Positions 1,614 to 4,089 are shown, counted from the first letter of the stretch. The stretch: DNA of 4,089 nucleotides from a virus (IMGVR_UViG_2700989507_000008:1-4089); one strand, 5' to 3'. Notes: generated by a model not told the origin, from the letters alone. A program made the numbers and translations.

Positions 1614-2357
1614 ATGACACAGACTGAATCAGCGATTCTGGCGCATGCCCGGCGGTGTGCGCCTGCGGAGTCGTGCGGCTTCGTGGTGAGAACGCCGGAG
1701 GGGGAGCGGTATATCCCTTGTGTGAATATCTCTGCAGAGCCGGAGGCGTATTTTCGTATTGCACCGGAAGACTGGCTGCGGGCAGAGATGCAGGGTGAGA
1801 TTGTGGCGCTGGTCCACAGCCACCCCGGTGGTCTGCCCTGGCTGAGCGAGGCCGACCGGCGGCTGCAGATAAAAAGTGCACTGTCCTGGTGGCTGGTCTG
1901 CCGGGGGGAAATTCATAAATTCCGCTGTGTGCCACATCTGACAGGACGGCGCTTTGAGCACGGGGTGACGGACTGTTACACGCTGTTCCGGGATGCATAC
2001 CATCTGGCGGGAATTGATATGCCGGATTTTGAGCGTGAGGATGACTGGTGGCGCAACGGTCAGAACCTGTACCTGGACAATATGGAGGCGACTGGTTTTT
2101 ACAGGATTTCCCTGCCTTCCGCACAGCCTGGCGATATCCTGCTGTGCTGCTTTGGCGCATCGGTGGCCAATCATGCCGCCATATACTGCGGCAACGGTGA
2201 GCTGCTTCACCATCTGCCTGAACAACTGAGTAAACGGGAGAGGTATTTCGAAAAATGGCAACGACGAACGCATTCAGCCTGGCGTCACCGCCACTGGCAC
2301 GTATCTGCCTTCACGGGGATTTACAACGATTTGGCCGCCGCCTCAGCCTGTATGTGA
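1614..2357 (+). CDS. K: Tail assembly protein K; N-terminal JAMM/MPN metalloprotease-like domain plus C-terminal NlpC/P60 cysteine peptidase-like domain
   Basis: ATG at 1614, 10 nt after the L stop; N-terminus MTQTESAILAHARR is gpK-like. JAMM motif H-x-H-x7-S-x2-D is intact (His68/His70 at 1815-1823, Ser78 at 1845-1847, Asp81 at 1854-1856). NlpC/P60-type Cys at 1974-1976 (DCYTLF) and downstream His at 2172-2174 (NHAAIY). The tracked ORF 1353..2357 extends upstream in-frame, but that part overlaps L and is not gpK-like. No obvious Shine-Dalgarno before 1614, so the start is probably translationally coupled to L. Confidence 0.88.
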   Translation: MTQTESAILAHARRCAPAESCGFVVRTPEGERYIPCVNISAEPEAYFRIAPEDWLRAEMQGEIVALVHSHPGGLPWLSEADRRLQIKSALSWWLVCRGEIHKFRCVPHLTGRRFEHGVTDCYTLFRDAYHLAGIDMPDFEREDDWWRNGQNLYLDNMEATGFYRISLPSAQPGDILLCCFGASVANHAAIYCGNGELLHHLPEQLSKRERYFEKWQRRTHSAWRHRHWHVSAFTGIYNDLAAASACM

Positions 2358-2935
2358 ACACGGCAGCGGAAGCCATCCGGGCGCTGTCGTTACAGGTGCC
2401 GGGATTCCGCCGTCAGATGAACGAAGGCTGGTACCAGATACGTATTCGCGGTGAGGACACGGCACCGGAGGCGGTGTACGCCCGTCTTCACGAACAGCTG
2501 GGTGAGGGAACGCTCATCCACATTGTGCCGCGACTGGCCGGGGCCGGAAAGGGCGGACTGCAGATTGTGCTGGGGGCGGCAGCCATCGTGGGGTCGTTCT
2601 TCACGGCCGGGGCATCAATGGCGTTATGGGGTTCAGCCCTGGCAGCCGGTGGTTTTTCTGCCACCACGATGCTGTTTTCACTGGGGGCCAGCATGATACT
2701 GGGTGGTGTGGCTCAGATGCTTGCCCCGAAGGCAAAAACACCGGATTACCGCGCAACGGATAACGGCAGACAGAACACGTATTTTTCCTCGCTGGATAAC
2801 ATGATTGCCCAGGGGAACCCGATGCCGGTGCCTTACGGTGAAATGCTGGTTGGCTCCCGGCGAATCTCCCAGGACATCAGTACCCGTGATGAAGGCGGTG
2901 ACGGGAAGGTGGTGGTTATCGGGCGGCAGGCATAA
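2255..2935 (+). CDS. I: Tail assembly protein I
   Basis: 226-codon ORF; translation (ARICLHGDLQRFGRR ... IHIVPR.AGA ... QIVLGAAAI.GSFFTAG ... NTYFSSLDNM.AQGN ... VVVIGR) is gpI-like. GGGAGAGG at 2236-2243 precedes ATG 2255. The first 103 nt overlap the 3' end of K in a different frame. Stop TAA 2933-2935. Confidence 0.9.
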   Translation: MATTNAFSLASPPLARICLHGDLQRFGRRLSLYVNTAAEAIRALSLQVPGFRRQMNEGWYQIRIRGEDTAPEAVYARLHEQLGEGTLIHIVPRLAGAGKGGLQIVLGAAAIVGSFFTAGASMALWGSALAAGGFSATTMLFSLGASMILGGVAQMLAPKAKTPDYRATDNGRQNTYFSSLDNMIAQGNPMPVPYGEMLVGSRRISQDISTRDEGGDGKVVVIGRQA

Positions 2936-2940
2936 AAGCG

Positions 2941-2978
2941 AAAAAATCCCGCAGTGCTCACGGACAGGAACTGCGGGA
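2941..2978 (-). terminator. Predicted Rho-independent terminator acting on the minus strand
   Basis: Perfect 9-bp inverted repeat TCCCGCAGT (2947-2955) / ACTGCGGGA (2970-2978) with a 14-nt loop. On the plus strand it is preceded by AAAAAA (2941-2946), so the minus-strand RNA would have the GC-rich hairpin followed directly by UUUUUU. There is no U-tract on the plus-strand side, so it is not a plus-strand terminator. Confidence 0.5.
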
Positions 2979-3037
2979 GCGTTACGAAGATTGAGTGTAA
3001 GGAATTATTCTTATGTCACGACAAAAAACATTAACGC
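2941..3037 (-). ncRNA. Hypothetical ~95-nt small RNA antisense to the tail operon, in the I-J spacer
   Basis: Inferred from the candidate promoter (TSS near 3037) and the minus-strand terminator (ends near 2941). The predicted transcript contains no ORF longer than about 6 codons and has a GU-rich 5' part (GCGUUAAUGUUUUUUGUCGUGAC). The 5' end is uncertain and there is no expression evidence. Confidence 0.25.
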
Positions 3038-3043
3038 AGAGAA

Positions 3044-3071
3044 ATTATTAGCGCCACAGTCAGTTTGTGAA
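3044..3071 (-). promoter_or_regulatory. Candidate sigma70 promoter on the minus strand (-35 TTCACA, 16-bp spacer, -10 AATAAT)
   Basis: Read on the minus strand: TTCACA (plus coords 3071-3066), 16-nt spacer, AATAAT (3049-3044); each is a 5/6 match to consensus. Lies in the AT-rich core of the I-J spacer and points towards the minus-strand terminator at 2941-2978. Predicted by eye only. Confidence 0.3.
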
Positions 3072-3108
3072 AATGTGAAGATATTCAGAATTTTTATTCA
3101 GTCATGAT

Positions 3109-3139
3109 ACAGGCATCCTCCGGGATGCCTGTTGTTTTT
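3109..3139 (+). terminator. Predicted Rho-independent terminator acting on the plus strand, immediately upstream of the J ribosome-binding site
   Basis: 10-bp stem ACAGGCATCC (3109-3118) / GGATGCCTGT (3123-3132) with tetraloop TCCG, followed by TGTTTTTG (3133-3140). The reverse complement lacks a U-tract, so it is unidirectional. Confidence 0.55.
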
Positions 3140-3173
3140 GTGCGTAACAGTTATCACAGTAAAGGGTGAGACA

Positions 3174-4089
3174 ATGGGCAAAGGTGGCGGCAAGGCGCAC
3201 ACGCCGGTAGAGGCAAAGGACAATCTTAAGTCCACGCAGATGATGAGCGTGATTGATGCCATTGGTGAAGGGCCGATTGAAGGCCCGGTGAAGGGGCTGC
3301 AGAGTATCCTGGTGAACAAAACCCCGCTGACGGACACGGACGGCAATCCTGTGATACACGGTGTGACCGCGGTCTGGCGCGCCGGGGAGCAGGAGCAGAC
3401 ACCACCGGAAGGCTTTGAGTCCTCCGGAGCGGAAACCGGACTGGGCGTGGAAGTGACGAAGGCAAAGCCGGTAACGCGCACCATTACATCCGCGAACATT
3501 GACCGCCTGCGGGTCACCTTCGGGGTGCAGTCACTGGTGCAGACCACGTCAAAGGGTGACCGAAACCCGACATCCGTCCGACTGCTGATTCAGTTACAGC
3601 GTAACGGTAACTGGGTGACGGAAAAGGATGTCACCATTAACGGCAAGACCACCTCGCAGTTTCTGGCGTCGGTGATTCTGGATAATCTGCCTGAGCGGCC
3701 CTTTAACATCCGGATGGTCCGGGAGACAGCGGACAGCACCTCGGACCAGCTGCAGAATAAGACGCTCTGGTCGTCATACACCGAAATCATCGATGTGAAA
3801 CAGTGCTACCCGAACACGGCGATTGTGGGGCTGCAGGTGGATGCGGAGCAGTTCGGCGGCCAGCAGATGACGGTGAACTACCATATCCGTGGTCGCATCA
3901 TTCAGGTACCGTCAAACTATGACCCGGAAAAACGCACGTACAGCGGTATCTGGGACGGCAGCCTGAAACCGGCATACAGCAACAACCCGGCCTGGTGCCT
4001 GTGGGACATGCTGACTCACCCGCGCTACGGCATGGGAAAACGTCTGGGGGCGGCAGACGTGGACAAATGGGCGCTGTATGCCATTGCGC
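3174..4089 (+). CDS. J: Host specificity / tip attachment protein J, N-terminal fragment (3' end lies outside the window)
   Basis: ATG at 3174 preceded by AAGGGTGAG (3161-3169). Frame is open to the window end and so is absent from the supplied ORF track. My translation begins MGKGGGKAHTPVEAKDNLKSTQMMSVIDAIGEGPIEGPV and continues ...NKTLWSSYTEIIDVKQCYPNTAIVG...AWCLWDMLTHPRYGMGKRLG, recognisably the conserved N-terminal region of lambda-family gpJ. Confidence 0.92.
   Translation, partial: MGKGGGKAHTPVEAKDNLKSTQMMSVIDAIGEGPIEGPVKGLQSILVNKTPLTDTDGNPVIHGVTAVWRAGEQEQTPPEGFESSGAETGLGVEVTKAKPVTRTITSANIDRLRVTFGVQSLVQTTSKGDRNPTSVRLLIQLQRNGNWVTEKDVTINGKTTSQFLASVILDNLPERPFNIRMVRETADSTSDQLQNKTLWSSYTEIIDVKQCYPNTAIVGLQVDAEQFGGQQMTVNYHIRGRIIQVPSNYDPEKRTYSGIWDGSLKPAYSNNPAWCLWDMLTHPRYGMGKRLGAADVDKWALYAIA

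Follow-up and report, generated by a model that had tools for sequence, protein, structure and literature searches.

The sequence IMGVR_UViG_2700989507_000008:1-4089, a stretch of virus DNA of 4,089 bp (hereafter, the window), covers the genes for tail-tip assembly in a lambda-like phage and raises the question of what is encoded in the 238-bp spacer that separates its tail genes I and J. A first-pass annotation of this DNA had proposed that a minus-strand promoter and an intrinsic terminator delimit an antisense small RNA (sRNA) there. The spacer and its flanks are 100% identical to those of many Stx2c- and Stx1a-converting phages (the phage is of the Shiga toxin (Stx) Stx1a/Stx2c type), and none of the RefSeq and GenBank matches inspected carries an annotated feature in the spacer. 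The results presented here establish that the sRNA unit held by this spacer is a real gene, a divergent and unannotated member of the PasB/EcOnc22-24 family, and make it probable that its product is an sRNA that the lysogen expresses and that depends on Hfq and base-pairs in trans. This function is assigned by analogy with the homologues, from which we also infer the expression, seed and targets of the window allele. Elements of this kind, this family and the dependence of the family on Hfq are already in the literature. The assignment of an unannotated, ~70%-identical allele to the family, the recognition that EcOnc22-24 and PasB constitute one family at one prophage locus, and the description of an allelic series and of its linkage to sodC are new.

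The sRNA unit and the RNAs known from its position

The unit comprises the following elements:

3071-3066, minus strand: -35 hexamer TTCACA, from a consensus promoter scan
3049-3044, minus strand: -10 hexamer AATAAT, 16 bp from the -35 hexamer, from the same scan
2941-3037, minus strand: predicted primary transcript of 97 nt, from G3037 (7 nt after the -10 hexamer) to the end of the U tract
3023-3037, minus strand: conserved 5' leader GCGUUAAUG, then U6, from the comparison of 26 alleles
3005-3012, minus strand: A-rich stretch AAGAAUAA with A-R-N repeats; an A-rich run is present in every allele
2999-3004, minus strand: UUCCUU, a pyrimidine motif that reads CUCCUU in most alleles and could pair with a Shine-Dalgarno sequence, from allele comparison
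2986-2992, minus strand: second single-stranded motif AAUCUUC, with U48, U50 and U51 invariant and A46, A47 and C49 at least 90% conserved
2941-2978, minus strand: Rho-independent terminator with a 9-bp stem (2978-2970 with 2955-2947), a 14-nt loop and U6 (2946-2941), from folds and conservation

The first-pass annotation was accurate in placing on this strand both the TTCACA-16-AATAAT pair, which matches the consensus at 10/12 positions, and a GC-rich 9-bp hairpin followed by a U6 tract; its reading of the latter as an Hfq-type terminator with a poly-U tail agrees with the stem and tail seen here. The 3' end of the unit falls 5 nt past the I stop codon (2933-2935). The term antisense holds for orientation, which opposes the late operon, but not for overlap, since the transcript at 2941-3037 faces that operon from between two genes and does not extend into any coding sequence.

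The further proposal that the unit is transcribed independently, as an sRNA with an Hfq-type terminator, is supported by published experiments on Hfq-dependent sRNAs from the same position. PasB was described in prophage PP6 of the enteropathogenic E. coli (EPEC) O127:H6 strain E2348/69 (Pearl Mizrahi et al. 2021, PMC8550237) as an 83-nt RNA on the minus strand of NC_011601.1 (1466343-1466261), between E2348C_1436 and E2348C_1437 (PMC8550237, Table S6), which RefSeq identifies as tail assembly protein I and tip protein J. In the coordinates of this locus (L001), I ends at 2256, the RNA spans 2262-2344 on the opposite strand and J starts at 2497. The E2348/69 spacer is 88% identical overall to that of the window, and the PasB promoter, TTCACA-16-TATAAT, occupies the same position as the window promoter. 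The PasB Northern probe matches the E2348/69 locus exactly, covering the terminator region, and its first 20 nt agree with the window terminator at 18 positions.

The abundance of PasB falls in a delta-hfq background with log2 fold changes of -6.8 under activating conditions (a 110-fold drop) and -2.4 under non-activating conditions (5-fold) (PMC8550237). Ligation and sequencing of interacting RNAs (RIL-seq) in the same work detected 37 PasB partners, of which none is an sRNA and 30 are coding sequences or 5' untranslated regions (5'UTRs); PasB was the second RNA in 99-100% of its chimeras, and over 98% of its chimeric fragments involved core-genome partners (PMC8550237). With a baseMean of 482-1082, against 5 for I and 15 for J, PasB is ~30-200 times more abundant in the lysogen than its flanking genes (PMC8550237) and must therefore be transcribed independently of them, as a moron would be.

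A second set of homologues was found in the enterohaemorrhagic E. coli (EHEC) O157:H7 strain Sakai, where EcOnc22 (from the Stx1 prophage Sp15), EcOnc23 (Sp14) and EcOnc24 (Sp11) were reported (Tree et al. 2014, PMC4104026) on the basis of peaks in Hfq crosslinking and analysis of cDNA (Hfq-CRAC), a ~85-nt Northern band and destabilisation in delta-hfq (PMC4104026, Table S2). These peaks sit in the Sakai I-J spacers, which are identical to one another in Sp15, Sp14 and Sp11, on the strand antisense to the tail genes. The Table S2 coordinates run ~142 nt below those of NC_002695.2, as calibrated on AgvB1, and once corrected by this amount the EcOnc22 peak covers the sRNA body and terminator. 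Uncorrected, they would assign the EcOnc22-24 peaks to a plus-strand hairpin, a placement that the AgvB1 calibration refutes. The location of EcOnc22 is settled independently by the shared EcOnc22/23/24 probe (PMC4104026, Table S3C), since its reverse complement matches the tail-antisense strand of Sp15 just 5' of the terminator; both Northern probes were placed by local alignment.

We did not find the equivalence of EcOnc22-24 and PasB stated in the PasB papers or in a 2021 review: the PasB entry in Table S6 of PMC8550237 carries no note of an EHEC homologue, and the EcOnc names are absent from a 2026 preprint on PasB (Zhu, Shabalina and Storz 2026, 10.64898/2026.05.13.724894). PasB variants are said in that preprint to differ by only a few nucleotides, and the window allele therefore probably falls outside its PasB count.

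Conservation across alleles

Membership of the window allele in this family was assessed with an nhmmer profile built from 31 alleles, from which all window-like sequences had been excluded to avoid circularity. The profile matches 3037-2941 of the window over model positions 1-96 of 97 (37.9 bits, E = 4.4e-12) and has no second match anywhere in the window. The location between I and J, on the opposite strand and just past the I stop, is common to the window, PasB and the Sakai prophages Sp15, Sp14 and Sp11, and the two features used as tests of membership, a sigma-70-type promoter of its own directly upstream of the GCGUUA leader and a CCCGCAG/CUGCGGG stem core with a U tail of at least 6, are both found in the window. 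When IMG/VR was scanned with a sequence pattern, 118 copies proved usable, corresponding to 46 distinct promoter-to-terminator sequences and to 40 distinct predicted transcripts of 90-103 nt. These transcripts have in common the GCGUUA leader and the U run behind it, an A-rich run, both pyrimidine motifs and the terminator with U6-8. Among 5,426 complete E. coli genomes, the window-type allele is present at an identity of at least 95% in ~610, and the spacer is matched, at least in part, in 1,730. A scan for the terminator pattern in one genome per species recovered mostly chance terminators, together with a full-length match in E. albertii. Full-length profile matches were also seen on contigs of 460-3,442 bp attributed to Parendozoicomonas haliclonae, Streptomyces flavalbus and a Clostridiales metagenome-assembled genome (L131, L135 and L139), which most likely represent contaminating E. 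coli prophage DNA.

The first IMG/VR pattern scan demanded a block upstream of the -35 hexamer and was hence unfit for judging promoter conservation, which was instead determined on 80 loci gathered through protein I alone (close relatives) that, with the window, make up a set of 81 spacers. Their promoter configurations are distributed as follows:

TTCACA-16-AATAAT: 10/81 spacers
TTCACA-16-TATAAT: 18/81 spacers
TTCACA-16-GATAAT: 1/81 spacers
TTCTGT-16-TATCAT: 23/81 spacers
TTCCGG-17-AATAAT: 3/81 spacers
promoter replaced by a sodC cassette: 25/81 spacers
neither a -10-like hexamer nor sodC: 1/81 spacers

Conservation of the hexamers in homologous spacers, a point on which the first-pass annotation had staked its proposal, is thus evident for the -10: of the 56 spacers that have no sodC, 55 align with a -10-like hexamer (AATAAT, TATAAT, GATAAT or TATCAT) at this position. 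The -35 is variable: TTCACA is found in 29/81 spacers, and the weaker TTCTGT or TTCCGG in other alleles. At one locus (L030, allele a30/c27) the sequence diverges after TTCACAAACTGA, inside the promoter spacer, into an IS3-family orfA, and the promoter of the sRNA has apparently been broken up there by an insertion sequence.

The 97-nt transcript folds at -26.9 kcal/mol (z = -3.55), a value equalled by 1/200 shuffles. Across 26 alleles, positions G1, C2, G3 and U4 of the leader are at least 90% conserved, as is its U run, and U5 and A6 are invariant. The A-rich run varies in sequence among alleles (AAAAACAAC, GAAAAAUAAC and AAAACAAAAC, for example). The pyrimidine motif has C36 and U39 without exception and is at least 90% conserved at U35, and ensemble folds of 40 alleles leave the motif mostly unpaired, with unpaired probabilities of 0.5-0.99; in the window allele, UUCCUU is partly paired in the minimum free energy (MFE) fold and has an unpaired probability of 0.56. 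No open reading frame (ORF) on either strand is kept across alleles. On this ground we rejected a small ORF on the sRNA strand (MFFVVT), a 12-codon ORF read by eye behind AAGGA with its ATG at 3013, and a 26-codon ORF from the scan of the late-operon strand, neither frame nor sequence being conserved in any of them.

The terminator arms, TCCCGCAGT (2978-2970) and ACTGCGGGA (2955-2947), form a stem with 6/9 G-C pairs that dominates the predicted structure, folds in isolation at -16.1 kcal/mol and appears in both the MFE and the centroid fold of the whole transcript. Consensus folding with RNAalifold on a MAFFT alignment of 26 alleles recovered only 3 pairs, loop indels misaligning the arms, and was replaced by folding of each allele, which revealed a terminal hairpin followed by U6-8 in 40/40 distinct alleles; the terminator is likewise present in 81/81 of the I-anchored spacers. 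The CCCGCAG/CUGCGGG stem core common to the window, PasB and EcOnc22 is nearly invariant across alleles, and one stem pair varies in rare alleles, from C-G to U-G (c09) or to U-A (c35).

Proposed action and competing explanations

In the mechanism that we propose, the unit is an sRNA moron that a lambdoid Stx prophage carries between I and J, in the orientation opposite to the late genes. The sigma-70 RNA polymerase of the host would start at TTCACA-16-AATAAT in the lysogen, with G3037 as +1, and transcription would halt where the hairpin and U6 follow closely on the end of I, yielding a primary RNA of ~97 nt that is possibly trimmed to ~82 nt. Hfq would bind through the U-tailed terminator, a putative proximal-face site, and probably also through the internal A-rich stretch, a putative distal-face site according to the ARN rule of PMC4104026. 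Pairing in trans would be directed mainly at core-genome mRNAs, in 5'UTRs and coding regions, and the unpaired, conserved and anti-Shine-Dalgarno-like UUCCUU and AAUCUUC motifs form a candidate seed that would provide the likely pairing surface.

Several observations weigh against this interpretation. The window transcript is 71% identical to PasB and 69% to EcOnc22 (PasB and EcOnc22 being 74% identical to each other), and the candidate seed reads UUCCUU in the window, CUCCUU in PasB and CUCCAU in EcOnc22. The 2026 preprint (10.64898/2026.05.13.724894) states that the function still awaits elucidation, and none of the family members has a published target or phenotype. With regard to length, the first-pass proposal of a ~95-nt non-coding transcript agrees with the absence of coding potential and with the predicted 97 nt, but the homologues measure only ~83-85 nt, 12-15 nt short of the length predicted from the promoter. 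The coverage-based 5' end of PasB corresponds to window position ~3022-3023, suggesting that the mature RNA may start near 3022 and not at 3037; the gap would be explained if the AU-rich leader is processed at its 5' side or if the ends were mapped imprecisely. The window -10 hexamer begins with A instead of T, and promoter-like sites number 2 in the window against 2.2 ± 1.8 expected from shuffles, the second call being an overlapping registration of the TTCACA-16-AATAAT site. Lastly, 25/81 spacers keep the RNA body with sodC in place of the promoter, from which it follows that the body can persist without a promoter of its own.

The imperfect -10 and the lack of promoter enrichment are what would be expected if the hexamers and the hairpin had come together by chance and the window allele gave rise to no discrete RNA. 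We regard this as the least probable of the explanations considered, given that the same architecture produces RNAs detectable by independent Northern blots in two pathotypes, that the expressed EcOnc22 of Sakai has the same AATAAT behind a -35, TTCCGG, weaker than that of the window, and that the unit is conserved over 40 alleles. Terminator-like sites number 8 in the window against 3.4 ± 2.0 expected from shuffles, a scan in which the 8-nt loop limit allowed only truncated 6-bp versions of the sRNA hairpin to be detected. The unit is accordingly judged to be real on comparative and published experimental evidence, and not on motif statistics.

The sodC-linked copies bear on the origin of the RNA body. 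In the spacers that carry it (the 851-bp class, L207), the Cu,Zn superoxide dismutase gene sodC lies on the minus strand between J and I with a hairpin of its own; everything upstream of transcript position 3 is replaced, and the RNA body, 98.9% identical to window 2941-3035 from that position onwards, becomes the end of the sodC unit. Since homology with these copies starts at transcript position 3, the +1 coincides with a module boundary. In O157:H7 strain 86-24 (L286, 1-2181) a stretch of 92 nt separates the sodC stop from the start of the body. The TTCACA/AATAAT promoter is absent from all sodC-linked copies, and in them the body may be made as an RNA derived from the sodC 3' untranslated region (3'UTR).

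Taken in the opposite direction, these copies, which are found in many O157:H7 genomes as well as in the 25 spacers and present a minus-strand sodC followed by a window-type body, could signify that the body is the leftover 3' tail and terminator of a sodC moron, which a promoter happens to abut and which is transcribed as a by-product that itself does little. We consider this improbable: of the 56 spacers without sodC, all but one keep the -10 exactly upstream of the leader; it is for promoter-bearing alleles that expression, binding to Hfq and a wealth of mRNA partners have been demonstrated; and internal motifs are kept across alleles that otherwise differ, which would be unexpected in a mere terminator tail.

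Between the sRNA promoter and J, the spacer carries a second hairpin:

3109-3142, plus strand: intrinsic terminator with a 10-bp stem, loop UCCG, then UGUUUUUGUG, from the terminator scan

This terminator folds at -19.9 kcal/mol (z = -4.4) and is conserved across alleles, with a compensatory change from U-A to C-G; in a class of 342-bp spacers (L257 and L125, including ATCC 25922) it is replaced by a non-homologous, bidirectional-looking hairpin, AAACCCCGGTATC...GATACCGGGGTTT. In the lysogen it probably keeps unmodified polymerase moving rightward from reaching J, and Q-modified polymerase would read through it.

The conserved terminator makes the spacer a control point for rightward transcription, and the whole 2941-3037 transcript, fixed in position in 81/81 related spacers, is perfectly complementary to the late mRNA between I and J. 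Both facts would fit an RNA that acts in cis and tunes J (tail tip) relative to the tail genes upstream of it, either by pairing with the I-J junction of the late mRNA in lytic growth, with cleavage by RNase III, or through interference from the convergent promoter; in a variant, the late mRNA would mop up the sRNA upon induction. We hold cis action to be unlikely, if less so than the two preceding alternatives, because the sRNA overlaps neither a coding sequence nor a ribosome-binding site, and because PasB is abundant in an uninduced lysogen in which I and J are nearly silent and has core-genome mRNAs as its RIL-seq partners. Phage lambda, moreover, manages without such an I-J spacer. When duplexes were predicted for the sRNA body with the start regions of M, L, K, I and J, no pairing was significant, the best value (z = -1.6) not exceeding shuffles and being uninformative.

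Trans action of an Hfq-dependent sRNA is thus the interpretation that we favour. The allelic series admits a broader conjecture, on which we would place little weight, of a family of seed cassettes, in which a fixed scaffold of promoter, GCGUUA-U6 leader, A-rich Hfq site and terminator carries rapidly diversifying pairing regions that recombination shuffles among prophages, the 3'UTR of sodC, a prophage virulence gene, offers a second route to the RNA, and a cis role in processing of the late mRNA at I-J may be added. Were this true, each lysogen would acquire a different host targetome, and the sodC route would couple oxidative-stress defence to riboregulation.

Segments of the spacer are shared piecemeal between genomes in BLAST comparisons (95-100% identity over 2941-3097, 3023-3180, 2930-3042 and 3069-3180), from which it follows that three modules, namely the body of the sRNA, its promoter and the hairpin next to J, are exchanged independently of one another; the I-J spacer is a recombination mosaic. 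In Sakai-type spacers (L109, L016, L079 and similar loci; alleles a20, a25 and a50), ~1-4 copies of a 7-nt unit, GTCTGAT on the sRNA strand, stand just upstream of the J start, a repeat that the window type does not have.

The surrounding window and comparison with known systems

Six genes are identified by Pfam in the window:

14-571: tape-measure protein, C-terminus (Pfam)
564-905: M (Pfam)
905-1603: L (Pfam)
1614-2357: K, with JAB and NlpC/P60 domains (Pfam)
2255-2935, plus strand: tail assembly gene I (Pfam Lambda_tail_I, E = 1.5e-14; RefSeq annotation on identical DNA)
3174-4089, plus strand: 5' part of tail tip gene J, which exits the window (Pfam FNIII-A_GpJ, E = 1.3e-42; RefSeq gpJ)

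K and I overlap by 103 nt on the plus strand (2255-2357) in different frames, an arrangement that we take to be the same in phage lambda.

Recognition of the family does not overturn the current understanding of prophage-encoded Hfq-dependent sRNAs. It reveals that one sRNA family, carried by the prophages of very many pathogenic E. coli, goes under two unconnected names, and with ~40 alleles in hand the Hfq-CRAC and RIL-seq data from EHEC and EPEC can be read together. The differences in seed among alleles raise the question of whether the host mRNAs regulated change with the Stx prophage, and the linkage to sodC provides a concrete instance, open to experiment, in which one transcription unit would combine an sRNA with the protein gene of a moron.

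Among known systems, the first-pass annotation had suggested comparison with AgvB, AsxR, IsrK and DicF, and had mentioned anti-sRNAs of pathogenic E. coli prophages. The RNA is not related to any of these four, and nothing in Rfam matches the spacer, even at E <= 10. Searches of Rfam 15 at permissive thresholds gave no spacer hit in the window or in the PasB, EcOnc22 and sodC-linked loci either; as PasB and EcOnc22 are known RNAs, the family is missing from Rfam 15 and the RNA is not thereby absent.

AgvB and AsxR (Rfam RF02702 and RF02703) resemble the window RNA in being prophage-encoded, short and Hfq-binding, with terminator tails, in pathogenic E. coli. They differ in measuring 51-60 nt, in lying near Q, stx and the lysis region downstream of PR', and not in the tail region, and in acting as sponges of sRNAs. 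That EHEC phages have yielded such RNAs (PMC4104026), and that the window transcript is short and has an A-R-N-rich stretch and a U-tailed terminator, could point to an anti-sRNA that sequesters a core-genome sRNA. This mode is very unlikely: the ~42-nt conserved 3' region of AgvB and AsxR (GUAUCUCAUGC...UUGCCCGAACCC) is missing from the transcript, which shares with them only a generic terminator and was rejected as a member of their family, and sRNAs are lacking among the RIL-seq partners of PasB.

The unit has closer parallels in phage morons, with which it shares the character of a self-contained unit between tail genes, expressed in the lysogen next to silent neighbours (according to the PasB data); the same slot carries the sodC cassette in other prophages. 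It departs from them in that its cargo is a non-coding RNA and in pointing against the late operon. EcOnc22-24 agree with the window in locus, strand, architecture and the AATAAT -10, and differ from it in a weak -35 (TTCCGG), a 17-bp spacer, a shorter leader and the motif CUCCAU. The resemblance extends furthest in PasB, which has the same spacer, strand, promoter position, TTCACA hexamer, 16-bp promoter spacing and 3' end 5 nt past the I stop, together with the GCGUUA leader, U run, A-rich run, pyrimidine motifs, terminator core and U tail. PasB is distinguished from the window RNA by its loop (11 nt against 14 nt), by its -10 (TATAAT against AATAAT) and by its candidate seed, which reads CUCCUUCACA in PasB and UUCCUUACAC in the window.

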